Of a stretch of 64,000 nucleotides of DNA, positions 10,304 through 45,454 are shown in pieces. How positions within the stretch are numbered: the stretch's first letter is position 1; each line of letters begins with the position of its first letter. The stretch covers positions 18,986 through 82,985 of the forward strand of contig JAZQFD010000007.1 in the NCBI GenBank assembly GCA_045539335.1. The letters run 5' to 3'. Source of the DNA: Eubacteriales bacterium (GTDB lineage: Bacteria > Bacillota > Clostridia > Oscillospirales > QAKW01). Made by a program: the position numbers and the translations under genes. The notes beneath the pieces were generated by a model. It was not told the origin of the DNA. It did not search any database and saw only the letters and a program-made list of their open reading frames with translations.

Positions 10304-10350
10304 ATCAAAATAGCGTATTTGCTAAATAAATGATGTGTGGTGAAAAAGAA

Positions 10351-12285
10351 ATGCAAGTTAAAGTAAACGGTCAGATGATCGAATTGGAAGCGGGTAAAAC
10401 GGTTTTTGATGCCGCCTTTGCTCTGGATCCTGCTGTCGCTCGGGAAGCACTCTGCTGCCTGGTGGGCGAGGAAGTGCGGGAATTGACTTATGTTCTCTCG
10501 GAAGGGGATGAGGTCACTACCCTGACTTTTGCCGATGAGCGGGCAAGAAAGGTCTTCTGGCACACCACATCCCATCTGTTGGCGCAGGCAGTGAAGCGGT
10601 TGTTCCCCGCAGCCAAATTGGCCATCGGCCCCGCCATCGATACCGGTTTCTACTATGATTTTGAGGTAGAGACTCCCTTTACGGCTGATGATCTGGTGAA
10701 GATTCAGGCTGAGATGAAGAAAATTGTGAAGGAGCGCCTTCGCTTGGAGCGCTTTGAGCTTTCTGCAGAGGAAGCCAAAGACCTGATGAAGGACGAGCCT
10801 TATAAACTGGAGCTCATTGAGGAGCATGCCGGTAAGGGAGAGAAGATCTCTTTCTACCGTCAAGGGGATTTCACCGACCTGTGCGCCGGTCCCCATCTCT
10901 TTGATGTTTCCAAGATTAAAGCCATCGCTCTTTTAAGCTCCACCGGTGCTTATTGGAGAGGAGATTCCAACCGTACCATGCTCCAAAGAATTTATGGTGT
11001 GTCCTTCTTAAAGGCCGCCGAATTGGAGGAGCATTTGGCTCAGTTGGAGGAAGCCCGTAAGCGGGACCATAATAAATTGGGTCGTGAGCTGGAGTATTTT
11101 ACCACCTCCGATGTGATCGGTCAGGGTCTGCCCATTTTGCTACCCAAAGGTGCCAAGGTGATTCAAACCCTCCAACGCTGGGTGGAAGATGAAGAAGAAA
11201 AGCGGGGCTATCTTTTGACTAAAACTCCCCTGATGGCCAAGAGCGATCTCTATAAGATCTCCGGCCACTGGGATCATTATTTGGACGGTATGTTTGTGCT
11301 GGGGGATCCTGCGGATGAAACCAAGGAATGCTTCGCCATGCGTCCTATGACCTGCCCCTTCCAATATCAAGTGTTCTTAAATCGGATGCGGTCTTATCGG
11401 GATCTTCCCATGAGATTGGGCGAGACCTCCACCCTTTTCCGTAATGAGGAAAGCGGCGAGATGCACGGGCTGATCCGTGTGCGTCAGTTTACCATCTCCG
11501 AGGGCCATTTGATTCTGCGCCCCGATCAGCTGGAAGAAGAATTCAAGGGTTGTTTGGAACTGGCAAAATATTGCTTGGAAACCGTTGGAATGCTGGAGGA
11601 TTGTACCTTCCGTTTCTCTCAATGGGATCCCAATAATACCGAAAAATACATCGGCACTCCCGAACAATGGGATGAAGCCCAAGGAATTATGGGCAAGATT
11701 CTGGACGATCTGGGTGTGGACTATACCATCGGGATCGACGAAGCGGCCTTCTATGGTCCTAAACTGGATATTCAATATCGCAATGTATTCGGAAAAGAGG
11801 ATACCATCGTAACCATTCAGGTGGATCAGTTGCTGGCAGAGCAGTTCGATATGTCTTATATTGATCAGAACGGTCAGAAGGTTCGTCCTTATATTATCCA
11901 CCGTACCTCTTTGGGATGCTATGAGCGTACGCTGGCTTATTTGATTGAGAAGTATGCCGGTGCTCTGCCTACTTGGATGGCTCCCACGCAGGTGAAGGTA
12001 CTGCCCATTAGCGAAAAGACCTTGGATAAAGCAGAGGGTGTCTATGAGCAACTGCGCAGAGCAGGTCTGCGGGTGGAACTGGATGAGCGCAATGAGAAGA
12101 TCGGTTATAAGATCCGGGAAGCTCAGCTTCAAAAGATCCCCTATATGGTCATTATCGGCGAAAAGGAAGCCGAGGCCGGCACCCTTTCGGTGCGTAGCCG
12201 CCATGATGGTGATCTGGGCACCATGCCGGTTGAGGAGTTTATCGCTCTAATTCGGGATGTTATCGATACCAAAGCCAAAAAGTAA
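10351..12285 (+). CDS. thrS: Threonine--tRNA ligase
   Basis: The ORF is 10330..12285. I prefer the ATG at 10351 (MQVKVNG, start of the TGS domain). It contains the HTTSHLLAQA editing-domain motif and a class II catalytic core. Confidence 0.93.
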   Translation: MQVKVNGQMIELEAGKTVFDAAFALDPAVAREALCCLVGEEVRELTYVLSEGDEVTTLTFADERARKVFWHTTSHLLAQAVKRLFPAAKLAIGPAIDTGFYYDFEVETPFTADDLVKIQAEMKKIVKERLRLERFELSAEEAKDLMKDEPYKLELIEEHAGKGEKISFYRQGDFTDLCAGPHLFDVSKIKAIALLSSTGAYWRGDSNRTMLQRIYGVSFLKAAELEEHLAQLEEARKRDHNKLGRELEYFTTSDVIGQGLPILLPKGAKVIQTLQRWVEDEEEKRGYLLTKTPLMAKSDLYKISGHWDHYLDGMFVLGDPADETKECFAMRPMTCPFQYQVFLNRMRSYRDLPMRLGETSTLFRNEESGEMHGLIRVRQFTISEGHLILRPDQLEEEFKGCLELAKYCLETVGMLEDCTFRFSQWDPNNTEKYIGTPEQWDEAQGIMGKILDDLGVDYTIGIDEAAFYGPKLDIQYRNVFGKEDTIVTIQVDQLLAEQFDMSYIDQNGQKVRPYIIHRTSLGCYERTLAYLIEKYAGALPTWMAPTQVKVLPISEKTLDKAEGVYEQLRRAGLRVELDERNEKIGYKIREAQLQKIPYMVIIGEKEAEAGTLSVRSRHDGDLGTMPVEEFIALIRDVIDTKAKK

Positions 12286-12292
12286 TAGTGAG

Positions 12293-12332
12293 CGGCACCG
12301 TTTCGCCAAGGCTTGACGGTGCCGTTTTCTTT
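12293..12332 (+). terminator. Rho-independent terminator after thrS
   Basis: CGGCACCGT...ACGGTGCCG followed by TTTTCTTT. The 3' arm overlaps the next promoter's -35 element. Confidence 0.7.
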
Positions 12333-12342
12333 ATGCTATAAT
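12313..12342 (+). promoter_or_regulatory. Sigma-70-type promoter for the 630-aa membrane protein gene
   Basis: TTGACG, 18 nt, then TATAAT. Confidence 0.5.
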
Positions 12343-12370
12343 CGGTTTATTAAAGAGTTGGAGGGCGATT

Positions 12371-14263
12371 ATGTATTCTTATTTGTTTTCCGCCTTGGGC
12401 GTTTGTGTGTTGGCTTTTGCCATCCTAAAAGCTGTGCAAAAGCGGCATAATACCGGCAAGTGCATCTCCTCTATTGTGCTCGGCATCTTCTTTACCTCCT
12501 TTTTGATGGTGTTGCCGACCCAATGGGGCAAGCCGGCAGAGGAGGTGTTTTTTAAGCCCTCCCATGATATTTTGTCTGCTCTGCTTTACAGTTTTAAGGT
12601 GTTGGGCGGGCGGCAGGATATCGGCCAACTGGAGACCATCGCCTTGCCCACGGTGCTCAAGGGCATTTATATCGGGCTCAATTATGGCACCTTTGCTCTG
12701 GCGCCCATTCTCACCTCCGGCTTGATTTTATCCTTTTTCGGGAATTTCGGTGAGAAAATTCAGTATGCTGTGCGGTTTTTCCGCCATTGCCATATCTTCT
12801 CGGAGTTGAATGAAAATGCCATCGCCCTGGCGAAGGGCATTGCCGCCAATGAAAAGGGCGCCTGCCTGGTCTTTTGCAATACCAAAGGTGCGAATGAAGC
12901 CTTGGCAGAAGAAGCCAAAAAGATCGGCGGGGTGCTGCTGTATTCCTCCTGCGATAAACTGCGGGTAGTCTTTCGGTATAAAAAACATCAATACTATCTC
13001 ATTGGCCAGGAAGACCGCAATATCAACGACGCTGTTACTTTGATTCAAAAGTATCAAGCGGACCGTACCCATCGCATCACCATCAATGCCTTTGCTCAAA
13101 ACGGCGCTAATATTAAGGTGGTAGAGGCCTTGGATCAAGGGCGGATCGAACTGCGGTTTATGGATGAGATTGCCCTCTTTTGCAATCACCTGCTCCATGA
13201 GCATCCTCTTTATGAGCATGCCATGTTGCAAGAGGATGGCTCCCGCCTGATCTCCGTGTTGCTGATCGGCGGCGGGCGCACCGGTCTGCAGATGCTCAAA
13301 ACGGTGGTATGGGCAGGGCAGATCGAAGGCTATCGCTTGAAGATTCAAGTCTACGATCAAAAAGCCCCCATCATCGAAGAAGAACTGTATGCCATGTGCC
13401 CCGAGCTGAAAAACTATAACATTGAGTTTATTAAAGCAGATGTGCAGCATGCTTCTTTTGAATCCATTATCCAAGAGAAAAGTGCCGATGCCACCTATGG
13501 CGTCATCGCCATGGGGGATGATGAGCTGAATCTGATTGCTGCCGATCGGATTCAAGGAGTGTTGCGTCGGGTAAAGAAATTTGAGAAAACACCGCCGTTG
13601 TTTGTGCGGGTGCGGGCAGGAATGAAAGCCAAAAACCTTTCCGATACCTCCTATCTGGAGCAGCGAAATATCACCCTTTTCGGCACCATCGATACCATCT
13701 ATTCCGAAAAGACCTTATTAAATACCGAATTGGAAAAGCGAGCCTTGGCGGTGCATCTTTGCTATAATAAAGCGTTGGATCTTTCGCCGGAGGACCCTGC
13801 CTATCAAAAGGCGGTCAACCGCTATCTTACCTCGGAATATAATCGCCGCTCCTCCATGGCCGCCGCCCTTCATCAGGATGCCAAGCTTCATAGCGCCGCT
13901 TTGTTGAAGGAGCAAGGGCTGGAATCCAAGGAGATTTTGGATCGGCTGTATCGCAATGAGCACCTTCGCTGGATGGCCTTTATGCGCAGCGAGGGCTATC
14001 GCACCACCGATTCCAAGACCATGACCCTCTATGCCCCCAAAACCGGCAGAGATCGGGATGATCTTTCCAAGCTTCATCCCTGCATTATTGATTGGGATCA
14101 GTTAGATGCGCTTTCTGCCCACTTCAATCAGTTGGGGCTTTCTTCGGAGCCGGTGGACTTTAAGGAGTACGATGAATTGATCGTCAATCGCATTCCCAAA
14201 ATCTGCGAAGTGGCGGCCGCCTTGCCGTCAGGAGGAACCTATGTATACACCGAAACCCATTGA
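12371..14263 (+). CDS. Membrane protein with Rossmann-like modules and a C-terminal RyR-like domain (function unknown)
   Basis: 630 aa with about 4 N-terminal TM helices and a glycine-rich LLIGGGRTGLQMLK loop. The C-terminal NEHLRWMAFMRSEGYR...KLHPCIIDWDQLD..K.YD parallels the RyR-domain pattern of the next gene. Confidence 0.7.
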   Translation: MYSYLFSALGVCVLAFAILKAVQKRHNTGKCISSIVLGIFFTSFLMVLPTQWGKPAEEVFFKPSHDILSALLYSFKVLGGRQDIGQLETIALPTVLKGIYIGLNYGTFALAPILTSGLILSFFGNFGEKIQYAVRFFRHCHIFSELNENAIALAKGIAANEKGACLVFCNTKGANEALAEEAKKIGGVLLYSSCDKLRVVFRYKKHQYYLIGQEDRNINDAVTLIQKYQADRTHRITINAFAQNGANIKVVEALDQGRIELRFMDEIALFCNHLLHEHPLYEHAMLQEDGSRLISVLLIGGGRTGLQMLKTVVWAGQIEGYRLKIQVYDQKAPIIEEELYAMCPELKNYNIEFIKADVQHASFESIIQEKSADATYGVIAMGDDELNLIAADRIQGVLRRVKKFEKTPPLFVRVRAGMKAKNLSDTSYLEQRNITLFGTIDTIYSEKTLLNTELEKRALAVHLCYNKALDLSPEDPAYQKAVNRYLTSEYNRRSSMAAALHQDAKLHSAALLKEQGLESKEILDRLYRNEHLRWMAFMRSEGYRTTDSKTMTLYAPKTGRDRDDLSKLHPCIIDWDQLDALSAHFNQLGLSSEPVDFKEYDELIVNRIPKICEVAAALPSGGTYVYTETH

Positions 14264-14519
14264 CACCTCCAAAATCCTCTTATCGGAGGATTTGGAGCAG
14301 CTCACCGAGAAGATTGCCGAAAATGTCCATGAAGTGTGGGCAAAGGGGCGGATCCAAGAGGGATGGACCTATGGAACGGTGCGGAATGATGCCAAGAAGG
14401 AAACCCCTTGCTTGGTTCCCTATGCCTGCCTGCCCGAAAATGAAAAAGACTATGATCGCCACACCGCCATGGAAACCCTGAAGGTGATTTTATCGCTGGG
14501 TTATAAAATTGAAAAATAG
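14241..14519 (+). CDS. Free-standing RyR (ryanodine-receptor-type) domain protein
   Basis: 92 aa with IAENVHEVWAKGRIQEGWTYG...PCLVPYACLPENEKDYDR..A.ETLK. The RBS is AGGAGG. It overlaps the preceding gene by 23 nt. Confidence 0.75.
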   Translation: MYTPKPIDTSKILLSEDLEQLTEKIAENVHEVWAKGRIQEGWTYGTVRNDAKKETPCLVPYACLPENEKDYDRHTAMETLKVILSLGYKIEK

Positions 14520-14552
14520 GGATAGACTGATAAAAGAAAGGAAGAGGATACT

Positions 14553-15155
14553 ATGGATCAGCAAGCCTTTTTTAAATTAACATACGGATTGTTTGTTCTC
14601 TCGGCTAAAGAAGGGGAGAAGGACAACGGTTGCATCATCAATACTGTTATGCAGATCACCGATACCCCCAAGCGGTTGGCGATTGCGGTGAATAAAAGCA
14701 ATTACACCCATGATATGATTTTGTCCACCGGCATATTTAATCTTTCTTCGCTTACGGAGCAGGTGCCTTTTTCCGTCTTTAAGCAGTTTGGTTTCCAAAG
14801 TGGGCGAGAGGCGGAAAAGTTCAGTGGCTCAGAACCCCGCACTACTAATGGCATTGCTTATTTGAAGGAGTATACCAACGCCGTTTTTTGCTGTAAGGTT
14901 TATGAGACGGTGGATTGCGGCACCCATACCCTCTTTTTGGCAGAGGCGGAGGATGCCTTGGTTTTGTCGGATGAGCCTTCGGTGACCTATGCTTATTACT
15001 TTGAGCATATTAAGCCCAAGCCTCAGAAGGCGGGGGAGAAAAAGAAATACGTTTGCGAGATTTGTGGCTTTGTTTATGAAGGGGAGGAACTTCCAAAAGA
15101 TTATATCTGTCCCTTATGTAAACACGGTGCAGAGTATTTCTCGGAAATAAAATAA
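14553..15155 (+). CDS. Flavin reductase domain fused to rubredoxin (Hrb-like)
   Basis: 200 aa with an N-terminal flavin-reductase-like fold (LTYGLFVLSAKEGEKDNGCIINTV). The C-terminal YVCEICGFVY...YICPLCKHG supplies two CxxC pairs. Confidence 0.85.
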   Translation: MDQQAFFKLTYGLFVLSAKEGEKDNGCIINTVMQITDTPKRLAIAVNKSNYTHDMILSTGIFNLSSLTEQVPFSVFKQFGFQSGREAEKFSGSEPRTTNGIAYLKEYTNAVFCCKVYETVDCGTHTLFLAEAEDALVLSDEPSVTYAYYFEHIKPKPQKAGEKKKYVCEICGFVYEGEELPKDYICPLCKHGAEYFSEIK

Positions 15156-15182
15156 GGCTGGTATTGACCAGCCTTATTTTAT
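15154..15182. terminator. Bidirectional terminator between convergent genes
   Basis: AAGGCTGGtattgaCCAGCCTT flanked by A/T tracts. Confidence 0.7.
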
Positions 15183-15544
15183 TTATCTCTGGGTTTTGTA
15201 AAGAGTGCAAAAAGAACGCCGAAGCCAATGGCGGCGGCAATGCCGCCGGCGGTGGTCTGCAACCCTCCGGTAAAGGCGCCTAAAAGCCCTCGGGCATTCA
15301 CCGCCTGCTCCACTCCCTTGGCCAGTGAATAGCCAAAGCCGGTTAAAGGAACGGTGGCACCTGCCTGTCCGAAATCCACGATTTTCTCATAAATTCCCAA
15401 AGCGGTCAGGGCAACGCCGCCGGCGACGTAAAGGACCACAATCCGTGCCGGCGTCCAGTTGGTTTTGTCTATGAGGATCTGCGCCAGTGCGCAAAGAACG
15501 CCACCGGTTAAAAAGACCTGCAGATAGATCATCCAAGAACTCAT
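15179..15544 (-). CDS. spoVAE: Stage V sporulation protein AE (SpoVAEB-type)
   Basis: I use the internal start MSSWMIYLQVFLTGGVLC (121 aa). Its ATG overlaps the spoVAD stop (ATGA). The PLTGFGYSLAKGV motif is present. Confidence 0.88.
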   Translation of the reverse strand: MSSWMIYLQVFLTGGVLCALAQILIDKTNWTPARIVVLYVAGGVALTALGIYEKIVDFGQAGATVPLTGFGYSLAKGVEQAVNARGLLGAFTGGLQTTAGGIAAAIGFGVLFALFTKPRDK

Positions 15545-16557
15545 TGGGCTTCTCCTTTCAAATGGATCAGATGGGCAATGGCAGGAATGGATTCTCCCTG
15601 CATCACCGAAAGAGGGCTCATCAGAGCACCGGTGGAAAGAAAGAGTACATTCTTCCATTCTCTCTTTTGGAGCTTGGGCAGTACATAGGCGGTCAGCACC
15701 GCAGCGCTGCAGCCGCAGCCGCTACCGCCGGCGTGCATATCCTGGGTGTCCCGATGGTAGATCAAAAGCCCGCAATCCTGATAATGGCTTTGAAGATCGA
15801 CCCCCTCTTTTTTGGCAAGTTCGATCACCACCTCTGCACCGATGGAGCCCAGATCCCCCGTGAGGATCATGTCATAATCCTGAGGGGTGGTTTTGGTTTC
15901 CTTTAAATAATCCAAAATCAGCCGCAAGGCCGCCGGTGCCATGGCACCGCCCATGTTGTTCACATCGGTGACCCCCATATCCCAAATGGCCCCAAAGGCG
16001 CCTCCCTCTAAGCGAATGGGAGAGGGCTCAACCGAGAGAATCAAGGCGCCGGAGGCGGTAACGGTGTGTTGGGCAGAGGGTGGGCGTTGACCGCCGTATT
16101 CCAAGGGAAAGCGATATTGCCGCTCGGCAGTGCCGAAATGGGAGGAGGTCAGCGCCCCTGCCAGATGGGTCAGCCCCGCCTCTATGGAAAGGGCGCCGAT
16201 CAGGGTAGAGAGTGCCATGGTGGAGCAAGCGCCGTAGAGTCCGATATAGGGCACTCCGCAATCTCGAAAGCTATAGGCGGAGCTGATGCATTGGTTGAGA
16301 AGATCTCCTGCTCCCACCAGTTCCAAGTCCTCTTTTTTCACGCCCGCCCGCCGTAGCGCATGATCCAGTGCCACCTGTTGAAGATGCACCTCGGCCTGCT
16401 CCATGGTTTTTTTGCCGCAGTAAAGGTCTTGCTCAATGCTGTCAAAGAGCCCGCCTAAAGGGCCTTCATGCTCTTTGGCACCTGCCACATTGCCCCAGCC
16501 GGCAATATAAATCTTTTGATCAAAGGAAAAACTGTATGTTCCGTGTCGTGTTGCCAA
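15541..16557 (-). CDS. spoVAD: Stage V sporulation protein AD (thiolase-like)
   Basis: 338 aa with a TTG start and a GGGGAG RBS. It shows YIAGWGNVAGAKEHEGPLG..FD and GGSGCGCSA. Confidence 0.9.
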   Translation of the reverse strand: MATRHGTYSFSFDQKIYIAGWGNVAGAKEHEGPLGGLFDSIEQDLYCGKKTMEQAEVHLQQVALDHALRRAGVKKEDLELVGAGDLLNQCISSAYSFRDCGVPYIGLYGACSTMALSTLIGALSIEAGLTHLAGALTSSHFGTAERQYRFPLEYGGQRPPSAQHTVTASGALILSVEPSPIRLEGGAFGAIWDMGVTDVNNMGGAMAPAALRLILDYLKETKTTPQDYDMILTGDLGSIGAEVVIELAKKEGVDLQSHYQDCGLLIYHRDTQDMHAGGSGCGCSAAVLTAYVLPKLQKREWKNVLFLSTGALMSPLSVMQGESIPAIAHLIHLKGEAQ

Positions 16558-16624
16558 GATTGTTCACTCCCCGCATTGTTTTTCCTTTGTATTTTTTGCA
16601 AAGATCTGCCATTTATGCAATAAA

Positions 16625-16657
16625 ATAACGGTACTCAAATGAGCACCGTTATTTTTA
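16625..16657. terminator. Hairpin terminator between the GGGtGRT-gene remnants and spoVAD
   Basis: AACGGTaCtcaaatgaGcACCGTT with T-tracts on both sides. Confidence 0.55.
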
Positions 16658-16665
16658 TAAAGAAT

Positions 16666-16870
16666 CTTACTTGAGAACTTCCATAACAGCAACGGCACAA
16701 GCCACGGTCATATGCTGCCCGTGGGCTTGATTCCCTTTAAAAGATAACACCCCTGCAGTTACCTGCAGGGGTGTTGACGGCTGTTCTCTTATTTGAGAGC
16801 TTCCATTACAGCAACGGCACAAGCCACGGTCATACCAACCATGGGGTTGTTACCGGCGCCGATGAGACCC
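16666..16870 (-). repeat. Direct repeat (left copy): 45-bp old remnant, hairpin terminator and 82-bp copy of the GGGtGRT gene 3' end
   Basis: It is colinear with 20788..21005. Positions 16789..16870 encode GLIGAGNNPMVGMTVACAVAVMEALK*, identical to the live C-terminus, with 6 nucleotide differences that are all synonymous. Confidence 0.9.
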
Positions 16871-16894
16871 CTGTTTTGTATGTTTAACAGTTAT

Positions 16895-17704
16895 TTATTT
16901 GATATGTTTACGGTAACGGCAAGGCGAAAAGCCTGTATGTTTTTTAAAAAGTTTTGAAAAATACGAATAATTATCAAAACCAACCATCTCCGCAGTCAAG
17001 GTAACACTGTGATTTTTATTACATAAAAGTTCCTTTGCAGTTTCAATCCGTTTGGCTGTAATATATTTGTTTACGGTGCATCCGTAAGAATCGCGAAAAG
17101 CCTTATATAGCGCATTTTTAGAAACGAACAGTTGCGTGCAAAGTTTTTCCAAAGATAATTCTTCAGATAAATTTTTTTCGATATAATCGGTAGCACGGTT
17201 AATTAAATCTCCAAAATCAACCTCTATAGCATTTTCCAGCAAAACATAAGACAATAAGTGGATTAAAGAAGAAATTTGATCTTCTGACAAATACGTAAGC
17301 TGTTTGTAATGCTTTTTTATATCTGCAACATCATCAACCCAATCCAACAATCCGTCTATATGCGATGCGTCTTTTTTGAACCTTATTCTGCCAATCATAA
17401 CAAAACCGACTATCACATCATTTTTAAGTATCGGAACAGCGGTATCTAACACACCAGCATGGCAAACGCAGGAAACCGCCCGTCTTGTCACGGCGCATTT
17501 TTTATACATTTCAATGTCTGAATGATAGCATTTTGCCCTGCCGATATCGTTTTTTTGAATTTTGTGGCAGTAAGAGGGAATACCCTTTTCACAAACATAA
17601 ATCGTGTTATACTTAATATCAGCCACGCACATACTTATATTTGTAATTGTGCAAATACAGTCAATTATTTCTTTAAGTTGTTCCAAATGATAAGTTGTTT
17701 TCAC
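16895..17704 (-). CDS. AraC-family transcription regulator with N-terminal PocR-like sensor domain
   Basis: 269 aa with a GTG start. The N-terminus is Cys/His-rich (YCHKIQ..AKCYHSD..CVCHAG). The C-terminus has the AraC HTH (SLEKLCTQLFVSKNALYKAFR...GFDNYSYFSKLFKKHTGFSP). Confidence 0.85.
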   Translation of the reverse strand: MKTTYHLEQLKEIIDCICTITNISMCVADIKYNTIYVCEKGIPSYCHKIQKNDIGRAKCYHSDIEMYKKCAVTRRAVSCVCHAGVLDTAVPILKNDVIVGFVMIGRIRFKKDASHIDGLLDWVDDVADIKKHYKQLTYLSEDQISSLIHLLSYVLLENAIEVDFGDLINRATDYIEKNLSEELSLEKLCTQLFVSKNALYKAFRDSYGCTVNKYITAKRIETAKELLCNKNHSVTLTAEMVGFDNYSYFSKLFKKHTGFSPCRYRKHIK

Positions 17705-17844
17705 AAGTTCACCCTCTTGCCTTTATTTTATAATATCAAAATCAAATTGTCAATTTTTTCATTTTAGGGAAGATAGTGCAAAAACAGAGGCAAATACTGA
17801 TTTAATATTCAGGTCAAAAGTTTTATAATGAAAAGGGTGATAAA

Positions 17845-18699
17845 ATGAATACTTTTCTGCTGATTGCTGTAATAACGGCTAACCTTTTTCAATCGATTTT
17901 CCAAAAGCATTATAACAAAAGAACAAAAAAACGAGGCACTTACATATTTAATTCAATATTCACATTAAGTGCCTGTATTCTTTTTGTTTTTACAAACAAT
18001 AAGGGTTTTCATTTTGAAAGGGCATTAATTCCATATATACTGGGATTTGCCGTGGCATTTGGCTCGGCAATTTTATTCACTTTTCTTTCTATCAGACAAG
18101 GGTCTCTTTCACTTACAACTTTGGCAACCTCTTACTCACTTATTATCCCCACATTATACGGACTGCTTTTTTTAAACGAAAATTCCAACATATTTTTATA
18201 CATAGGTTTTGCCTTATTGGTATGCAGTTTGTTTTTGCTCAACAGTAAAAACGACGGCGGTAAAATCAACCTTAAATGGATAATTTTCGTTTTGATTGCC
18301 TTCGTTGGAAATGGTATGTGCGCAACTATACAAACCGCACAGCAACTGCGTTTTGGCGGACAGTATAAGGGGGAATTTATGATTTCGGCTCTAATTATAG
18401 TGTCTGTTTTCTTCTTTATGCTAAGTATAATAAAAGAAAAGGCAGATTTGATACCATGCTTAAAATCCAACCTTGTGTTTATGGTACTTACAGGAATTGC
18501 CAACGGATTGGTTAACCTGTTTGTTATGTTTCTTGTGTCACGAAAAATGCCAACTTCAATTATGTTTCCCATAATATCGGGCGGTGGAATCGTTCTTACA
18601 ACAACGGTTTCTGTAATTATTTATAAAGAAAAATTAAGTATTAAGCAATACTTTGGTTTGCTGCTTGGTATCGCTTCGGTAATATTTATGAATTTATAA
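17845..18699 (+). CDS. DMT-superfamily (EamA-like) transporter
   Basis: 284 aa with about 10 hydrophobic helices in a two-half arrangement. Confidence 0.7.
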   Translation: MNTFLLIAVITANLFQSIFQKHYNKRTKKRGTYIFNSIFTLSACILFVFTNNKGFHFERALIPYILGFAVAFGSAILFTFLSIRQGSLSLTTLATSYSLIIPTLYGLLFLNENSNIFLYIGFALLVCSLFLLNSKNDGGKINLKWIIFVLIAFVGNGMCATIQTAQQLRFGGQYKGEFMISALIIVSVFFFMLSIIKEKADLIPCLKSNLVFMVLTGIANGLVNLFVMFLVSRKMPTSIMFPIISGGGIVLTTTVSVIIYKEKLSIKQYFGLLLGIASVIFMNL

Positions 18700-18728
18700 T
18701 CGCAAGGATTTAAAAGGAGAGATTTAAT

Positions 18729-20633
18729 ATGTATAAAATTTCGGTTCCTATAATGGCGACAACAATCACAGAGAATAACAAAAAAGATTACCTCGCGTTA
18801 TTCAAAAACGCAGGTGCATCACGAATTTTTATAGCATTGCCCGATTACGCTATACCGCCCACACTTGGCGAAAACATAGCATTTTTTAAACAGAACGGTT
18901 TTGAGGTCGGCGTTTGGTTAAGCACTATCGGACACGGTTTTGTTCTTAGTCATACCGACGATGTGACCGACCTTAAATTCACCGCTATCACGAATATTGA
19001 GGGTGAGGAGCGCCCACAGGCCAACTGTCCGCTTGATGAAAATTTCAGTGACTTCATTGCCCGCCTTGTTGCCGACATTGCTAAACTTGGTCCCGATATT
19101 GTAATGTTGGATGATGATTTTCGCCTATCACAACACGGAAAGCATCTGTGTTGCGCCTGTAAAAATCATCTTAACCGCATCAGCGAAATTCTCGGAGAAA
19201 ATATCACCCGCGAGAAAATCAAGCCGTATATCTTATCGGGAAAAGCAAACAAATACCGTGACGCTTGGTTAAAGGCGCAAAGTGACAGTTTAATTGAATT
19301 TTCAAAGCATATTCGGGCCGAAGTTGATAAGGAAACGCCTGATGTAACGGTATGTGCTTGCATGGCTTGTGCACCATGGGATGCAGACGATTTGGATGTT
19401 GCCGAAGTTGCACGAATACTTGCCGGTAATCATCAGCCCATCCTCAGACTTACGGGTGCGCCGTATTGGGCAACACAACAGCGTAAATACCCGCTTATAG
19501 CCGTATTTGAGATTGCCCGTATGCTCGCTTCTTTCGTTCAAAACCAAGGGTTTGACCTGATGAGCGAAGGTGATGTATATCCCCGACCACGTTATACCTG
19601 CCCCGCTTCATATTTGGAACTTTACGATGTCGTAACCCGCGCCGATGGCGGTTATAACGGAATTCTTAAATATATGTTTGACTATGTTGCGGGTCCGGAT
19701 TTTGAAACAGGATACCTTAAACTGCATAATGATAACGCTTCGTTCTACAAGAAACTTGCAAAAATGTTCCCTAACGGCGCAAATGCGGGTGTTCGAATAA
19801 TTACCAATCCGCACACAATGAAAAATGCCGATCTGGATATTTCCGCACCGAAAATTTATTCGCCTGTACCACAAGATGGCGCTATGCTGGGTCTTTGCGG
19901 AATTCCTACGATATATCGCGGCAAGGGTGTTTGCAACTCTGTATTTGGAGAAAATGCAAGAGCATTTAACCTTGAAGAACTCGGTACAGGCACCATTATC
20001 GATGCCGTTTCTGCTATGATTTTAACCGAGCGTGGCATTGATGTGGGATTAAAGTCATTTAACAAATTAAACACTCGAAACATCGCTTTTCTATGCACAA
20101 AAAACTCCGAGCACAATTCACTTATCACCAACGGAAATGTCAGAGTTTTAGATGCAGTTCTTAAAGACAGCGCAGAGCCGGTGTTATTCTCAGTAGAAAA
20201 AAACGAGTTAGTACCATTCGCATACCGTTATGAAAATGCTAATGGTGAGCGCTTTTTGGTATTCCTGTTTGAGGGCGCTTCTATTTACGACCACGACAGG
20301 GGTATCGCTTGGTCAGGATTAAACAAAAACTATGCCACACAGGAAATACTGATTGATTCTATACCGTGGCTCGCAAAACAGCCCCTACCCGCATATTGCG
20401 CTTTAAATCCCGAAGTTTATATTATGTGCGAAAAGGATAACGATACCATGAGCGTCGGTGTCTTCAACTGTTTTGCCGACCCGCTTACAAACCCCATTAT
20501 TATGCTGGGAGAAAAATATTCCCGCATCGAATGTTTAAACTGCGAAGCAATGCTGGATGGCAATAAGGTTACTATTACAAATAAACTTCATGCCTTCTCC
20601 CACGCAGTATTCCGTTTATACAAAGATATCTAA
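18729..20633 (+). CDS. Hypothetical 634-aa cytoplasmic protein (possibly a TIM-barrel carbohydrate-active enzyme)
   Basis: Long ORF with a strong AAGGAG RBS and no signal peptide. I do not recognise the family. Confidence 0.6.
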   Translation: MYKISVPIMATTITENNKKDYLALFKNAGASRIFIALPDYAIPPTLGENIAFFKQNGFEVGVWLSTIGHGFVLSHTDDVTDLKFTAITNIEGEERPQANCPLDENFSDFIARLVADIAKLGPDIVMLDDDFRLSQHGKHLCCACKNHLNRISEILGENITREKIKPYILSGKANKYRDAWLKAQSDSLIEFSKHIRAEVDKETPDVTVCACMACAPWDADDLDVAEVARILAGNHQPILRLTGAPYWATQQRKYPLIAVFEIARMLASFVQNQGFDLMSEGDVYPRPRYTCPASYLELYDVVTRADGGYNGILKYMFDYVAGPDFETGYLKLHNDNASFYKKLAKMFPNGANAGVRIITNPHTMKNADLDISAPKIYSPVPQDGAMLGLCGIPTIYRGKGVCNSVFGENARAFNLEELGTGTIIDAVSAMILTERGIDVGLKSFNKLNTRNIAFLCTKNSEHNSLITNGNVRVLDAVLKDSAEPVLFSVEKNELVPFAYRYENANGERFLVFLFEGASIYDHDRGIAWSGLNKNYATQEILIDSIPWLAKQPLPAYCALNPEVYIMCEKDNDTMSVGVFNCFADPLTNPIIMLGEKYSRIECLNCEAMLDGNKVTITNKLHAFSHAVFRLYKDI

Positions 20634-20685
20634 CAGTGAATCATTTTTGGCTCCGTAAAATCCATCACAATTCATATAAAAAAGC

Positions 20686-20733
20686 AGACACATCATTCTT
20701 GAAAACTCAAAAATGATGTGTCTAACTTTTTTT
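20686..20733 (+). terminator. Rho-independent terminator at the island's right end
   Basis: AGACACATCATT...AATGATGTGTCT (12-bp stem) followed by a T-tract. Confidence 0.7.
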
Positions 20734-20787
20734 AATGTTAAATTTTTATAATAGGTCTTTTACAAGTTGCCGAAAGCCTTACAAAAC

Positions 20788-21005
20788 CTTATTTATTAAG
20801 TGCTTCCATTACAGCAACGGCACAAGCCACGGTCATATGTTGCCCGTGGGCTTGATTCCCTTAAAAAGATAACGCCCCTGCGGTTTAACCGCAGGAGCGT
20901 TGACGGCTTGGTAATATTGATACTTACTTCAAAGCTTCCATTACAGCAACAGCACAAGCCACGGTCATACCAACCATGGGGTTGTTACCAGCGCCGATGA
21001 GGCCC
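20788..21005 (-). repeat. Direct repeat (right copy): 45-bp remnant, hairpin terminator and live 3' end of the GGGtGRT gene
   Basis: It is colinear with 16666..16870. The remnant 20789.. encodes MTVACAVAVMEALNK*. The hairpin 20871..20901 serves as terminator of the live gene. Confidence 0.9.
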
Positions 21006-21922
21006 ATCATTTCTACGTGAGCGGGAACAGAAGAGGAGCCGGCGAACTGAGCGTCACCGTGCATTCTGCCCATGGTATCGGTCAGACCGTAGGAAGCGGG
21101 GCCTGCAGCCATGTTATCGGGATGCAGGGTTCTGCCGGTACCGCCGCCGGAAGCAACGGAGAAATACTTCTTATCGTTCTCGCCGCACCATTTCTTATAG
21201 GTGCCGGCAACAGGATGCTGGAAGCGGGTGGGGTTGGTGGAGTTACCGGTGATGGAAACATCCACGTGCTCGTGTTTCATAATGGCAACGCCTTCGGAAA
21301 CATCGTTTGCACCATAGCAGCGAACTTTTGCCTTATCACCATCGGAATAAGCGGTGGTGTTCACAATCTTCAGCTCGCCGGTATAGAAATCATAGTCAGT
21401 CTCTACATAGGTGAAGCCGTTGATTCTGGAGATGATGTAAGCGGCATCCTTGCCCAGACCGTTTAGGATAACCTGCAGGGGCTCCTTACGAGCCTTATTA
21501 GCAGTTCTGGCAATACCGATAGCACCTTCGGCAGCAGCGAAGGACTCATGGCCGGCCAGGAAGCAGAAGCACTTGGTTTCTTCTTCCAGCAGCATAGCAG
21601 CCAGATTACCATGGCCCAGACCTACGCTTCTGGTCTCGGCAACGGAGCCGGGGATGCAGAATGCCTGCAGACCGATACCGATGTCTCTTGCAGCATCGGG
21701 AGCGGATTTATCGCCATTCTTCAGTGCGATGGCAACGCCCAGGGTGTATGCCCAGCAAGCGTTTTCAAATGCGATGGGCTGAACGCCCTTCACGATGGAG
21801 GCAACATCAATGCCTTTGGACAAGCAAAATTCATTTGCCTCATCCAAGGTAGCAAAACCATACTGCTCCAGTACGGGCTGGATCTTGCCGATTCTTCTCT
21901 CATAACCTTCAAAAGTAGCCAT
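20924..21922 (-). CDS. GGGtGRT-family protein (uncharacterised conserved family)
   Basis: 332 aa containing SVASGGGTGRTLHPD. The RBS is a strong AGGAAGGAGG. Confidence 0.85.
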   Translation of the reverse strand: MATFEGYERRIGKIQPVLEQYGFATLDEANEFCLSKGIDVASIVKGVQPIAFENACWAYTLGVAIALKNGDKSAPDAARDIGIGLQAFCIPGSVAETRSVGLGHGNLAAMLLEEETKCFCFLAGHESFAAAEGAIGIARTANKARKEPLQVILNGLGKDAAYIISRINGFTYVETDYDFYTGELKIVNTTAYSDGDKAKVRCYGANDVSEGVAIMKHEHVDVSITGNSTNPTRFQHPVAGTYKKWCGENDKKYFSVASGGGTGRTLHPDNMAAGPASYGLTDTMGRMHGDAQFAGSSSVPAHVEMMGLIGAGNNPMVGMTVACAVAVMEALK

Positions 21923-21939: not shown

Positions 21940-22632
21940 TTATTCTTCTCTGGGATCGATGTACTTGACCGCTTCATCGAAACGACCGTAGGTGCCTACG
22001 TTCTTCTCATAAGCATCCTTGGGGTCAGCGCCCTTGCGGATCATATCCATCATCTTGCCCAGGTGAACAAACTGATAACCGATGCACTCATTATTGGCAT
22101 CCAGAGCCACTTTCAGAATGTAGCCTTCTGCCATTTCCATGTAGCGAACGCCCTTTACTTTGGTGGCAAACATGGTACCGATCTGAGAACGCAGACCCTT
22201 ACCAAGATCTTCCAAAGAAGCGCCGATGGGCAGACCGTTCTCGGAGAAAGCGGTCTGGGTGCGACCGTAAACCAACTGCTTGAAGATCTCACGCATTGCT
22301 ACGTTAATAGCATCGCAGACCAGGTCGGTATTGAGCGCTTCCAGCAAGGTCTTGCCCTGCAGAATCTCAGCGGCCATAGCAGCGGAGTGGGTCATACCGG
22401 AGCAGCCCAAGGTCTCAACCAGAGCCTCTTCGATAATACCTTCTTTAACGTTCAGGGTCAGCTTGCAGCAGCCCTGCTGAGGTGCGCACCAGCCGATACC
22501 GTGGGAAAGACCGCTGATATCGCTGATTTGAGTAGCTTTTACCCATTTGCCCTCTTCGGGGATGGGAGCGGGACCATGATGGGGACCCTTGGCTACCACG
22601 CACATACTTTCAACTTCATGTGAGTAGTTCAT
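21940..22632 (-). CDS. NifU/IscU-N-terminal-like Fe-S scaffold-type protein with extra C-terminal domain
   Basis: 230 aa. WCAPQQGCCKL and TLGCSGMTHSAAMAAEILQGKTLLEAL resemble the IscU cysteine motifs. It lies 17 nt upstream of the GGGtGRT gene. Confidence 0.75.
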   Translation of the reverse strand: MNYSHEVESMCVVAKGPHHGPAPIPEEGKWVKATQISDISGLSHGIGWCAPQQGCCKLTLNVKEGIIEEALVETLGCSGMTHSAAMAAEILQGKTLLEALNTDLVCDAINVAMREIFKQLVYGRTQTAFSENGLPIGASLEDLGKGLRSQIGTMFATKVKGVRYMEMAEGYILKVALDANNECIGYQFVHLGKMMDMIRKGADPKDAYEKNVGTYGRFDEAVKYIDPREE

Positions 22633-41880: not shown

Positions 41881-43541
41881 TGCTCATCACTTTCTACCGG
41901 CACTTTCTTCTTTTTGAGAAGAAAGAAGGAAACGGCGGCAACCGCAATGACTAAAAGGCCGCCAATACCGATCCAAAGCCAAGGAGTAGAGGATTCTTTA
42001 TCTAAAAGATCCAATTCAAAGGAGAATTGATTTTCCGATAAGTAGAAGGCCTTTCGGTCGGTGGAATAATGCTCCACTTCAACCTTTCTTCCGTCCTGGG
42101 AGAAGTAAAGCATGGTCACCACGCCGATCCCGTCCAGATCATGGTCGGCGCTTTGGGGATTGATCATCATTTGGGTCACGGTATTGCCGCAATCTCCCTG
42201 AACTTGAGACAGGGCAATCTGTGTGCTTCCGTTTACGTGCCCGCAAAGGACCAAGGTGATGTTTTCGTGTTTACGAATCAGCTTTTCCCAGATTTCCTGA
42301 CCACTGTTGCCATTTTTGTTTTCTTTTGTAGAGGCGATCTCTCCGTTACTAGTGAGATAATGATGGGTGCTGATGATCACATTTCGATCGGGATGAGCGG
42401 CGATCACCTCGTTTGCCCATTCCAGCGCACTATCGGACACATTGTAGTCCAGTGCCATGCTCATATAAGGAATATCCCCCACCTCAAAGCAAGAGTAACT
42501 GTTGAGCATATTTTCATTGAAACAGCCGTGAGTCTCCTCATATTCGGAATAGTCAAACATCAATTTGAAATCTTTTGCCTGATCGTGGTTCCCACGTACT
42601 ACTGTATAGGGAAGCTTACCGGTAAGGCGATCAAAGCAAGGCCAGATGTTGGTCCATTCACGATCACTGCTTCCATGGGTCAGATCTCCTACAGTGAATA
42701 AATGCTTGATGTTTTTCTCCTCGATGTTTTCCTCGATCCAATCAAACATAGCGGTGAGCTTTTCCGGATGCAGGTTGGTGAGCCATTGGGGATCGCCTAA
42801 AACGGCAAAAGAGAAAGAATAATCCTTTGCCGGCTTTTTATCGGCCACCCAAATGCTTTTTAAAATCATGTCGTTTTTATTGCCGCTCTTATCGGGGATC
42901 ACCTCGGGCCGTCCCCCTGCGGAAAGATCATAGGCCATCATCAGCCCATCCTGATCCAAGGTACCGGTAGAATCGGCGGCGATTTCTTGGGCAGTACGCA
43001 GATCACTGTAAAGAGCGGCGTTTTTTAAAGCACCCTTAAAGCGGCCGCGATTGGCACTTCGATCATCGGTGGCAAGGCCAAGGGAATAATGAAGGGCAAC
43101 CTCTCCGGGAAATTCCTGAACCATGGAGTCCACCGCTTCACCGTTGATATAGCAGGTAACGGTATCGGTTGCCTGATCCAAAGTAATGGCAAGATGAATC
43201 CATTCGCCGGTAAACACATTCACATTGGTAAAGGAAGCGCTTTTTCCGCCGTCGTCTTCATTGGAAAGAAAAAGATAGGGGTGTCCTTCGGTGGTAACGC
43301 CGAAAACTAAGCCGGAAGTTGTGGAAGTCATGTAACTGCCGAAGATGACGTTGGGGTCTTCACATTCGGTGTCAACAGGAAACTTCAAGGTCGCTTCGTA
43401 AGTGGTCGGCAGTTGAGCGGGCAGCTCCTTGGTATAGTATTGATACTCAGGGTCAAAAACCATTCCTTCTTCCTCTGCCGTCGCTACCGGGCAAACCAGA
43501 AGAAGCGCCAGCACTAAAAAGATTGCACTGATTCGTTTCAT
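41877..43541 (-). CDS. Secreted LamG/ConA-like lectin domain plus calcineurin-like metallophosphoesterase, with C-terminal TM anchor
   Basis: I use the start MKRISAIFLVLALLLV behind an AAGGAG RBS. It shows FTGEWIHLAITLD..CYINGE (LamG-like). The phosphoesterase motifs are GDPQ, GDLTH, GNHD and CGHVNG. The C-terminus is WLWIGIGGLLVIAVAAVSFFLLKKKK. Confidence 0.8.
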   Translation of the reverse strand: MKRISAIFLVLALLLVCPVATAEEEGMVFDPEYQYYTKELPAQLPTTYEATLKFPVDTECEDPNVIFGSYMTSTTSGLVFGVTTEGHPYLFLSNEDDGGKSASFTNVNVFTGEWIHLAITLDQATDTVTCYINGEAVDSMVQEFPGEVALHYSLGLATDDRSANRGRFKGALKNAALYSDLRTAQEIAADSTGTLDQDGLMMAYDLSAGGRPEVIPDKSGNKNDMILKSIWVADKKPAKDYSFSFAVLGDPQWLTNLHPEKLTAMFDWIEENIEEKNIKHLFTVGDLTHGSSDREWTNIWPCFDRLTGKLPYTVVRGNHDQAKDFKLMFDYSEYEETHGCFNENMLNSYSCFEVGDIPYMSMALDYNVSDSALEWANEVIAAHPDRNVIISTHHYLTSNGEIASTKENKNGNSGQEIWEKLIRKHENITLVLCGHVNGSTQIALSQVQGDCGNTVTQMMINPQSADHDLDGIGVVTMLYFSQDGRKVEVEHYSTDRKAFYLSENQFSFELDLLDKESSTPWLWIGIGGLLVIAVAAVSFFLLKKKKVPVESDEQ

Positions 43542-43571
43542 TATTTTTGTCTCCTTATAATTCAAATCCAT

Positions 43572-43708
43572 TGGTTAAAGATCTTCTTTGGTACCGGCAA
43601 TTTGAAGACATCGGAGCCTTCTGAATTTCCCGGGGAAGGCTTGGTTTAAAAGAGGCTCAAAAGGGTTCCTCCCATTCCTGCCGAAAGGGCGCCGGTTATC
43701 TTCTTCAT
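43572..43708 (-). pseudogene. Decayed, truncated copy of the small membrane protein gene
   Basis: The minus strand reads MKKITGALSAGMGGTLLSLF*, versus MKKIIGALLAGVGGILSLLGIF in 41467..41880. Nucleotide homology continues with indels, then stops. Confidence 0.65.
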
Positions 43709-45441
43709 TATTTATCGTTTGCTACAGGCGCTTTCTTCTTTTTCAGCAGAATCAAGAGGACTCCGGCGGCGATCACTACGGTTGCTCCGCCAATACCGAT
43801 CCAAAGCCAAGGAGTAGTGGATTCTTTGTCTAAAAGATACAATTCAAAGGAGAATTGGTTTTCCTCCAAAAAGTAGGCCTCTTCCACAGTAGAATAATGC
43901 TCCACCTGTACCTTAGAACCATCTTCAGAAAAGTACAGCATGGTTACAATCCCCACTCCGTCCAGCTCACGGTCTATGCGCTGAGGATTGATGATCATTT
44001 GGGTAACGGTGTTTCCGTGAACGCCTTTTTCCTGAACGGTTTTAATCAGATCGGTGGTGTAAATATGTCCGCAGAGGACTAAAGTGATATTTTGGTGCTT
44101 GCAGATGAGTTTGTCCCACATATCGGCGCCGTAGTTGCCGGAAGAAGAGGTATCAACCGCTTCCTCTTCATCCTCGTCGAGGTTACTTGTAGCGGTGCTG
44201 GAGGTTCGATTGCCTAAATTATTCATGTAACTATGGGTCATAACAATTACATTGCGGTCCGAATGCTCGGCAACAACGCCGTTTGCCCATTCCAATACCT
44301 CATCGGAGGGCATATAATCCAATGCCAAGATCAGGAAAGGAACATCGCCCACATCAAAGCATTTATAAGTATTCAGCATGGTATCGTCAAAGGTACCGTC
44401 TACAGTGGAGCCGTATTCTTCAAGAGAAATATTCTTTGTAAACTGTTTCTTGGAATCGTGGTTGCCACGAATCAGCGAGTAGGGAACAACATCGTTTAAT
44501 TCTTCCAAGGCTCCTTCAAACATCATCCATTCGCCGGAGCTGTTTTTATGAGTAAGATCTCCCAAAGTAAACACCCGTTGAATCTTCTTTTCTTCCGTGT
44601 TTTCTGCAATCCACATATACATAGACATCAGTTTTTCCGGGTTGCGTTGGGTCAAATACTGAGGATCCCCCACAACGGCAAAGGAGAAAGCATAATCCTC
44701 TACCGGCTCTTTTTCGGTGATCCAGCGATGTTTCAATTGAAGGTCGAATCCGTTTCCGCTTTGATCGGAAATGGTTTCGGGCAGGGAATCGGCTCCATAT
44801 TGGCTCAGATCATAGGAAACCAGCAAACCTTCGGCGGCTGATGTTCCTGCATAATCAGCCGCAATTTCATCGGCGGTGCGGATGTCGGAATAAAGGGCGG
44901 CATTGCGAATGCTGCCTTTAAAATAAAATTCATTCAGTCTTTGGTGATCGCTGCCAAGACCCAATGTATGGAGCATCTGCACAGTTTCGGGAGATTCGGC
45001 AGTAATGGTTTGCTTTAGTTGACCGTTGATATAGCAGGAGAGAGTGCCGCCTGCAGAATCCTTTGCGATGGCAATATGGACCCATTCTCCGGTATATACA
45101 TTGATTTGATCAAATTCATAGTAATGATAGGCTTTTTGGTCATCCACAATGATTAGCCCGGGGGTGCCGCCATCATCGATTCGAAATTGAAAGCCCGGAA
45201 CACTTTTTACCTGGTAATTGCCCAGAATCGCACCGCCCTTTTTTTCAGGATCATAGTCGGCGGGGAACTGAACGGTGGCCTCATAGGTGGCAGGTAATGT
45301 GGTCAACAGGTTTTCGGTGCGGTAATAATCTTCGGCGTGAAAGGTCATTCCCTCGGCGGTGGTTTCCGCCGTTACCGAAATGCCTGCTGTACAGGCCAGC
45401 AGAACGGTTAGCATCAAAAGAGTTGAAAGTATGCGTTTCAT
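43708..45441 (-). CDS. Paralogous LamG-like plus metallophosphoesterase protein with C-terminal TM anchor
   Basis: 577 aa with the same architecture and motifs (GDPQ, GDLTH, GNHD, CGHIY; WLWIGIGGATVVIAAGVLLILLKKKK). Confidence 0.8.
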   Translation of the reverse strand: MKRILSTLLMLTVLLACTAGISVTAETTAEGMTFHAEDYYRTENLLTTLPATYEATVQFPADYDPEKKGGAILGNYQVKSVPGFQFRIDDGGTPGLIIVDDQKAYHYYEFDQINVYTGEWVHIAIAKDSAGGTLSCYINGQLKQTITAESPETVQMLHTLGLGSDHQRLNEFYFKGSIRNAALYSDIRTADEIAADYAGTSAAEGLLVSYDLSQYGADSLPETISDQSGNGFDLQLKHRWITEKEPVEDYAFSFAVVGDPQYLTQRNPEKLMSMYMWIAENTEEKKIQRVFTLGDLTHKNSSGEWMMFEGALEELNDVVPYSLIRGNHDSKKQFTKNISLEEYGSTVDGTFDDTMLNTYKCFDVGDVPFLILALDYMPSDEVLEWANGVVAEHSDRNVIVMTHSYMNNLGNRTSSTATSNLDEDEEEAVDTSSSGNYGADMWDKLICKHQNITLVLCGHIYTTDLIKTVQEKGVHGNTVTQMIINPQRIDRELDGVGIVTMLYFSEDGSKVQVEHYSTVEEAYFLEENQFSFELYLLDKESTTPWLWIGIGGATVVIAAGVLLILLKKKKAPVANDK

Positions 45442-45454
45442 TTTTTATTTCTCC

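Follow-up and report, generated by a model that had tools for sequence, protein, structure and literature searches.

An island at the end of a GGGtGRT gene

We investigated a low-GC island that adjoins the 3′ end of a GGGtGRT gene in a DNA stretch of 64,000 nucleotides from an Eubacteriales bacterium (GTDB: Clostridia, Oscillospirales, QAKW01). The stretch, hereafter the window, corresponds to positions 18,986 to 82,985 of contig JAZQFD010000007.1 (assembly GCA_045539335.1). The island holds three genes, encoding a PocR-sensor AraC-type regulator, a transporter of the EamA/drug–metabolite transporter (DMT) type, and a 634-aa protein, and it is bounded by two direct repeats, each of which contains a copy of the end of the GGGtGRT gene (Table 1). 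An initial annotation, made from the letters alone, had interpreted this arrangement as an integration into the 3′ end of the gene with restoration of its reading frame. Our Pfam scan agreed with its description of the three island genes and identified the right-hand repeat as the live end of the GGGtGRT gene, which is a full-length open reading frame (ORF) restored with element-side sequence.

The two repeat units (16667–16870 and 20789–21005) are colinear and about 205 bp long each. In a MAFFT alignment, 179 of the 204 ungapped columns matched (87.7%, against roughly 88% estimated by eye), and the units differed by one 9-nt and one 1-nt indel. A repeat finder returned the colinear pairs 16671–16760/20796–20885 (91%), 16759–16782/20885–20908 (83%), and 16788–16883/20923–21018 (89%), spaced by 4125–4135 nt. 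Read on the minus strand, which is the orientation of the gene, each unit comprises an 82-nt gene end, a terminator hairpin, a spacer, and a 45–48-nt gene-end fragment, and all four parts described by the initial annotation could be located in both units. The order along this strand is the gene with its end (copy D), terminator T1′, spacer′, fragment C, an arm with a hairpin, the three cargo genes, copy B, terminator T1, the spacer, fragment A, hairpin T0, and spoVAD. Copies B and D are 93% identical, and the alignment confirmed that all six differences of the detached left copy are synonymous. A 38-nt block, which includes the 17-nt core discussed below, is free of any difference, and the stems of T1 and T1′ differ by several compensatory pairs. 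The abrupt end of homology was seen at 16870/16871 and 21005/21006. A search for other copies of the 205-bp unit, which had been proposed as a check, found none elsewhere within the 64-kb window, and a metagenome scan for the spacer of the unit returned 0 matches.

The GC content of the island is 38.1%, compared with 50.0% in the rest of the window and 53–56% in the neighboring genes; the low value annotated for the island thus stands, whereas the value of about 60% given for its flanks does not. The three genes between the repeats are metabolic or regulatory, and no phage structural or replication genes were found among them. No transposase occurs among the island genes and no inverted repeats occur at the island ends, and the duplication measures 205 bp. 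The island thus has the marks neither of a prophage nor of a transposon or IS insertion, for which a short target-site duplication would be expected.

The AlphaFold2 model of the 634-aa cargo protein, built on 24 homologs, reached a predicted local distance difference test score (pLDDT) of 89.2 and has three domains, with an N-terminal triosephosphate isomerase (TIM) barrel. The best Foldseek matches of this model were GH42 beta-galactosidases and a GH164 beta-mannosidase (E ~1e-21; template-modeling score, TM, ~0.6), at a sequence identity to GH42/GH164 structures of only 10–13%. A glycosidase fold like that of GH42/GH164 can be confidently predicted. The protein has more than 1600 homologs, all unnamed, and in the contexts seen the family is always accompanied by a PocR-AraC regulator and an EamA transporter. 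The three-gene module also occurs in other Clostridia, in unrelated neighborhoods, where its GC content fits that of the hosts (49% in L082; 37% in L083 and L084; L numbers denote the loci and contigs compared). That the module matches its host elsewhere, yet has 38% GC here, argues that the cassette is an ordinary sugar-type module that came from a lower-GC donor. The EamA gene is broken into two ORFs in one homologous contig (L081, 1004–1858), and in a copy that is 92–95% identical (L088, 1229/1230) it is mostly deleted, with window positions 18120–18680 absent; this indicates that the cargo is decaying in some strains.

Table 1. Features of the GGGtGRT locus and the adjoining island, with window positions
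Feature	Position	Strand	Basis
Live GGGtGRT gene, 332 aa; proposed integration target	20924–21922	−	Pfam PF14057 GGGtGRT, 1.8e-193, model positions 1–327 of 327
Copy D, last 82 nt of the live gene, GLIGAGNNPMVGMTVACAVAVMEALK*; putative gene-side att repeat	20924–21005	−	Repeat finder and alignment
Inferred recombination core GGTAACAACCCCATGGT in copy D	20973–20989	−	17-mer found only twice in the 64-kb window (D, B)
Terminator T1′, directly past the live stop codon	20871–20901	−	Terminator scan, 14 pairs followed by a T-run; predicted −25.7 kcal/mol
Spacer′ (GGGAATCAAGCCCACGGGCAACAT and adjoining bases)	20837–20870	−	95% identical to the left spacer; predicted hairpin, −18 kcal/mol
Fragment C, detached 48-nt gene end, MTVACAVAVMEALNK*	20789–20836	−	Directly upstream of the element arm; alignment to relatives
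Element-side arm with family hairpin GACACATCAT-N16-ATGATGTGTC	20685–20788 (stems 20687–20722)	−	Inverted repeat, 18 pairs; predicted −29.7 kcal/mol
634-aa cargo protein, predicted GH42/GH164-like three-domain glycosidase fold	18729–20633	+	No Pfam/NCBIfam match; AlphaFold2 and Foldseek
EamA/DMT-type transporter, 284 aa	17845–18699	+	Pfam EamA, 2e-08
PocR-sensor AraC-type regulator, 269 aa, in divergent orientation to the transporter and 634-aa protein genes	16895–17704	−	Pfam PocR, 9.9e-24; HTH_18, 2.5e-20
Copy B, detached 82-nt gene end, GLIGAGNNPMVGMTVACAVAVMEALK*; putative distal att repeat	16789–16870	−	Second intact core at 16838–16854
Terminator T1, past copy B	16746–16775	−	Terminator scan, 13 pairs; predicted −26.6 kcal/mol; homologous to the L005 terminator
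Spacer and fragment A (16667–16711, MTVACAVAVMEVLK*); A, presumed older detached gene end	16667–16745	−	Alignment
Hairpin T0 with a T-rich run behind it, in the interval from fragment A to spoVAD	16619–16655	−	Predicted −20.5 kcal/mol

Elements at the same site in other species

We examined 80 GGGtGRT loci of related species (one genome per species, not selected for the hairpin), in several of which the 3′ end of the resident GGGtGRT gene recurs as a detached copy farther downstream. The 10-kb element of L047 consists, counted from the gene, of an AT-rich arm, a hairpin, an integrase gene, about 9 kb of accessory genes (a WYL regulator, a resolvase, and a Cro/C1 helix-turn-helix protein), and a gene-end fragment of at least 70 nt (97% identity). 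Its tyrosine recombinase (315 aa, 11141–12088; Phage_integrase, 4.2e-31) has a SAM-like N-terminal domain and no arm-binding domain; in NCBIfam it is nearest to XerA/XerC/XerD, under every cut-off, and all of its matches among phage records are below 30% identity. An integrase 68% identical to that of L047 lies at the same place in L035, and only its first 42 codons are found there in L013.

Further elements share this place, among them those of metagenome and viral loci (L163, L119, L188, L138, and L210/L211). L163 has a 2.2-kb element with a 54-aa integrase stub and flanking 192-nt repeats that are 100% identical, and L119 has two tandem integrase-less modules, each of fragment, hairpin, and cargo, with 94-nt repeats at 99% identity. 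L022 (11451–12031) has a 1.2-kb islet at the same attachment (att) site, which holds only a barnase-type ribonuclease and a barstar (Pfam 4e-12 and 2e-18), a toxin/immunity pair at the same integration site. In L188, the live gene end is followed by a 1.2-kb insert, a fragment starting at GGCAACAACCC, the hairpin, and an integrase stub, and in L138 the hairpin is followed by a cassette of fucosidase, GH43-like, oxidoreductase, and AraC genes without an integrase. The elements of L047, L163, L119, L022, and L188, which are bounded by detached 3′ fragments, support the proposed insertion into the GGGtGRT 3′ end with the frame restored. Two fragment–hairpin–integrase modules (L210 and L211; integrases 86% and 64% identical to that of L047) lie on one 32-kb IMG/VR contig, UViG_3300018878_002442, which is classed as viral and carries large ORFs; this suggests that prophages, too, may use the att/integrase module, which can accrete in tandem. 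Among the family members that we examined, none showed conjugation genes. Downstream of the GGGtGRT gene in L054 (1857–8431), there is a 6.4-kb island whose boundary is a detached gene fragment much longer than the others, of which at least 156 nt could be aligned, reaching the contig end. We saw neither the hairpin nor an integrase in the L054 island, which is possibly the product of a different insertion mechanism at the same gene.

The hairpin ties the window island to these elements. It occurs in 7 of the 80 species loci, each time within 400 nt of the stop codon, either in its exact form GACACATCAT-N-ATGATGTGTC (L012, L013, L022, and L039, at 50–180 nt from a GGGtGRT end) or as co-varying variants (L035, L044, and L047); across the 80-species set, the outer stem co-varies as GACA/TGTC, GACC/GGTC, CTCC/GGAG, and GCCA/TGGC. 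In the window, it lies about 67 nt (20723–20788) past the stop codon of fragment C. The arm and hairpin of the window align with the region between the GGGtGRT stop codon and the integrase in L047, L035, and L013, and fragment C together with the arm aligns with the gene end and arm of L047, L035, L013, L039, L022, and L012. Fragment C occupies the place of the live gene end in those relatives that carry an integrase. Scans of metagenomes and viral sequences for the exact hairpin yielded 122 loci, with a GGGtGRT end or fragment in 50, an L047-like integrase in 35, and both in 25. The gene end lay within 260 nt of the hairpin in 44 loci (range 48–183 nt), and in the 34 of these whose integrase state was assessable, the integrase gene was full length in 15, truncated in 5, and absent in 14.

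Candidate recombination core

Where attL and attR are identical to each other, the blocks of the window, L022, and L047 have only GGTAACAACCC in common. Detached fragments begin at different distances from the stop codon (−82 in the window, −93 in L047, −94 in L119, −99 in L022, −66 in L188, and −192 in L163). The L188 fragment begins right at the putative core, and this locus also carries an isolated GTAACAACCCGATGGTT scar. Both cores of the window island read GGTAACAACCCCATGG; in copy D, the codons at the core encode G-N-N-P-M-V, and these residues are invariant. The core is surrounded by GTAACAAC-CCCATG-GTTGGTAT, with inverted arms that match at 6 of 8 positions and a 6-nt center. The putative crossover would lie in or near GGTAACAAC-CCCATG-GTTGGTAT, with imperfect inverted arms around the 6-nt center, a layout that would suit a Xer-like enzyme without an arm-binding domain.

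Fragments A and C start downstream of the core, which is present only in the 82-nt parts of the units. Because the 45-nt fragments lack the core, simple duplication of an att site does not account for the 205-bp repeat. The spacer that precedes the 45-nt fragments (GGGAATCAAGCCCACGGGCA) resembles a scrambled core; spacer′, judged by eye, may be a scrambled form of the att core region.

Related loci and the empty site

Two comparisons with relatives had been proposed by the initial annotation, namely a check for relatives that carry the island and a search for an empty site in which the GGGtGRT gene is followed directly by spoVAD. The cassette was found at the GGGtGRT site in 0 of the 80 related loci, and spoVAD downstream of the gene also in 0 of the 80; the predicted empty site was seen in no relative, and the genes following GGGtGRT are other neighbors. 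In the closest locus, L001 (99% aa and 82% DNA identity), GGGtGRT is followed by 3.6 kb of unrelated DNA and then by the ortholog of the threonyl-tRNA synthetase gene (window 10342–12282). In the closest spoVAD relatives, L085 and L087, GH3 and metallophosphatase genes precede spoVAD, and their orthologs lie at window 41982–47590 (41982–43541 for the one directly upstream). The island lies at a synteny breakpoint (window 12283–20923 versus L001 11000–14620; window 16557 versus 41982). Exact-protein look-ups of the GGGtGRT, SpoVAD, and 634-aa proteins of the window for sister genomes returned no record. The nearest SpoVAD homolog outside the contig of the window itself is 85% identical, which indicates that no genome of the same species is available for comparison.

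In L005, the live gene end is followed by a homologous terminator, a spacer, a degenerate gene-end fragment, and another terminator, with no island. This occurrence of terminator, spacer, and fragment without an island indicates that the compound unit is older DNA of the host locus, and L005 is the best island-free analog and the nearest thing to an empty site. In L012 (10999–11200), the live gene end is followed by 15 nt without a terminator, a 48-nt detached gene end (92% identical), the arm, and the family hairpin. This odd architecture is otherwise that of the window; replacement of the final 45–51 nt of the gene has apparently happened more than once, independently.

Origin of the island

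We consider it likely that the window island is a decayed member of this element family and that site-specific recombination brought it to the GGGtGRT gene end. In gene orientation, an intact member would comprise the gene, an att region from about 66–100 nt before the stop codon to the stop codon, an AT-rich arm of about 60–100 nt, the hairpin, a Xer-like integrase with cargo, the detached gene end, and host DNA. Such an element would bring a replacement gene end and a terminator hairpin, and since the element side would supply the gene end, the reading frame would be restored. In the window island, the interior, integrase included, would have been lost or replaced, leaving the three-gene, low-GC, carbohydrate-type cassette, while the arm, the hairpin, and the two cores (D and B) would have been retained. 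Support for the family tie comes from the alignment of the window arm and hairpin with the corresponding region of L047, L035, and L013, and the loci form a decay series in which the integrase is full, truncated, or absent. Since elements with a truncated integrase or none occur as often as intact ones, the simplest view of the window island is that of a decayed derivative. It would not be self-mobile, although its excision by a related integrase acting in trans is conceivable in principle, as for a cis-mobilizable element (CIME).

As for the compound repeat, the nested 45-nt fragments with their terminator and spacer would be an older or separate scar of gene-end replacement. If the DNA that came in was a composite or accreted element, derived from a related donor and with its own diverged copy of this scar, a single recombination would leave a 205-bp unit on both flanks. 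A composite donor most simply explains the scar on both sides, the 88% identity, and the restriction of the differences to synonymous and compensatory ones. Since the B/D differences are synonymous and the T1/T1′ changes compensatory, the comparison suggests that both units were functional while they diverged, each in a lineage of its own. L001 served as an outgroup for the origin of B and D, with mixed signals from six sites, which are too few. This order of events in the history of the island is one that we infer.

Several observations weigh against this interpretation. As the initial annotation had noted, the island, with its three cargo genes, contains no recombinase: we found no integrase or remnant in it, and tblastn with the L047 integrase and resolvase gave no match in the whole 64-kb window. 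Given this absence, site-specific integration of this particular island is proposed from the homology of its end. The homology of the flanks, at 205 bp and including non-coding DNA, is longer than the usual att of the family, and RecA-dependent recombination would account for it just as well. The repeats are 88% identical, as against 97–100% for the attL/attR of L163, L119, and L047. The PocR stop codon is only 24 nt from copy B, which means that any distal P-arm has been lost. A same-species empty site was not found, no second genome of the species being on record. Finally, the metagenome scan demanded an exact stem, and its counts are therefore ascertained on the hairpin.

The length of the flanking homology, colinear through non-coding DNA at 88% identity, would also fit a Campbell-type RecA recombination between the resident unit and a circle from a related donor that carried the cassette and a 205-bp unit, with no integrase taking part in this event. 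The absence of an integrase from the island and the window is in keeping with such an event, and L005 has the unit as ordinary host DNA. The gene-proximal end of the island, however, consists of the arm and hairpin typical of integrase elements, and the homology limit at −82 is near the family att limits of −93, −94, and −99 (L047, L119, and L022). Homologous recombination is inefficient at 88% identity over 200 bp. A donor circle, moreover, needs an origin, most simply as an excised element, and the arm and hairpin are otherwise unexplained; we regard this alternative as rather unlikely. An integration at the core followed by ectopic gene conversion or template switching, which would have copied the T1–spacer–A side to the proximal side via the gene-end homology, would account for the position of fragment C directly before the arm, exactly where an element-supplied gene end is expected. 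It also fits two local identities: 36 nt of fragment C are identical to copy B, and the two units agree at about 96% over a 70-nt block, which extends from the tail of the terminator across the spacer and takes in the initial 27 nt of the 45-nt fragment, the adjoining sequence being far more diverged. Yet the compensatory stem pairs and the 9-nt indel demand long divergence after the copying, and the purely synonymous differences of the non-functional copy B from copy D are unexpected for decay in situ, which makes this history very unlikely.

An assembly artifact, in which strain variants were joined in a metagenome assembly, is extremely improbable. The source does look like a contig of the metagenome-assembled genome type, and the species is represented by one genome only, but collapsed or duplicated reads would not give copies with indels and 88% identity, and the proximal junction has the architecture typical of the family. 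In addition, Logan contig L081 (SRR14289618), from an independent sample, is 98.8% identical and covers window 16841–20730 including the B/island junction, which makes misassembly, the alternative that the initial annotation had named, unlikely at least on the left side. The island homologs L081, L088, and L089 are short contigs that end in or before the repeats, so that the left junction alone can be confirmed.

It is also conceivable, although unlikely in our judgment, that the site is a cassette-stacking platform, where the fragment and hairpin form a recombination module and a Xer-like integrase behind the very highly expressed GGGtGRT gene accretes self-contained cargo. The cargo modules would then be sugar-utilization operons, barnase/barstar pairs, and surface proteins, each ending in a fragment and hairpin (L119, L138, L188, and L210/L211), and the window island would be an exchangeable module, not a dead remnant. 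As a variant of such stacking, the unit of about 125 nt (gene end, terminator, and scrambled core) may itself be a small non-autonomous insert for which the gene end was a target on two occasions.

Neighboring genes and small features

Upstream of the GGGtGRT gene lies a gene (21940–22632, minus strand) for a 230-aa protein with a weak NifU/IscU-like stretch (23.5 bits). This gene adjoins GGGtGRT in nearly all of the 80 loci, with 73–100% aa identity, and such conservation of the neighborhood suggests that the two form a functional pair, perhaps in Fe-S or redox chemistry. Between the threonyl-tRNA synthetase gene and the spoVA block, the ORF at 12371–14263 (plus strand) encodes 630 aa with no Pfam match. 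According to our literature search, the GGGtGRT protein, the product of a conserved gut-bacterial gene, turns up in gut and rumen metaproteome and proteome studies, and no paper treating GGGtGRT as an integration site was found.

The family hairpin of the window has T-runs on either side and is probably a bidirectional terminator. T0 is possibly the original terminator of the GGGtGRT gene. The spacer (AAGCCCACGG; 16712–16745 and 20837–20870) can pair with the start of the adjoining fragment (CCGTGGCTT; 16690–16711 and 20815–20836), with a predicted energy of −18 to −19 kcal/mol. ORFs of 51–53 aa read through the units, but we do not regard them as coding, since neither frame nor sequence is conserved from one copy to the other. 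We also considered the four gene-end copies as shufflon-like C-terminal variation and rejected this, as the variants differ by one or two residues and are not accompanied by an invertase or recombinase.

Comparison with known systems

The element family, though common, is apparently undescribed and its target gene new, although integrating islands of this kind are themselves known. No new mechanism is revealed here, and the compound repeat is only partly explained. If mobile elements repeatedly land at the GGGtGRT 3′ end in Oscillospiraceae-like Clostridia, a detached gene tail with the CATCAT hairpin could serve annotators as a marker for islands, prophages, and fossils in gut anaerobes, and insertion of elements at the GGGtGRT end would explain local synteny breaks. 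Sugar-utilization cassettes, including a large unannotated GH42/164-like family, would then move across lineages of differing GC content.

Tyrosine-integrase islands and prophages reside in the 3′ ends of tRNA, transfer-messenger RNA, and protein genes with long attP/attB identity, as in SLP1, pSAM2, and the Dehalococcoides ssrA islands. The window island resembles them in that the repeat is the duplicated 3′ end of the target and the element carries a replacement end, and likewise in its anomalous composition, patchy distribution, and decayed copies. It differs in that its repeat is compound (an 82-nt and a 45-nt end with a terminator), the copies are 12% diverged, and the integrase is absent. 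As in integron cassette arrays, the family has a tyrosine recombinase gene beside an insertion point whose position, behind a strongly expressed gene, is fixed, and stacked cargo modules each end in a conserved imperfect palindrome (L119). However, the family integrase scores 55.7 bits against the TIGR02249 cut-off of 265, far below it, and the modules carry a duplicated piece of the target gene and cargo with its own regulators and terminators. We therefore rejected an integron array; the likeness is a resemblance only.

Islands in gene 3′ ends, their decay to att-flanked remnants, and their tandem accretion are well described (PMC5704250), and CIMEs are defined in the same source, which cites Pavlovic 2004 and Bellanger 2011. 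Compared with the CIMEs at the 3′ end of fda in Streptococcus thermophilus (ICESt1/ICESt3 family), the window locus differs in its target, GGGtGRT, and its host, an Oscillospiraceae-like member of Clostridia. The family integrase is small and Xer-like and not of the ICESt type, and the flanks of the window island carry an additional older scar. The two have in common the 3′ end of a protein gene as the target, with the frame restored, and kinship with elements that occupy this site and encode an integrase. Among the relatives of the window island, L119, L188, and L210/L211 likewise form tandem arrays in which att copies lie internally. As for the retention of att sites that marks a CIME, the window copies share the 38-nt block and the putative 17-nt core, with a distal arm of at most 24 nt. 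Integration and transfer genes have been lost from the window island as from a CIME, and the homology of its arm and hairpin points to an integrase-bearing ancestor at the same site.

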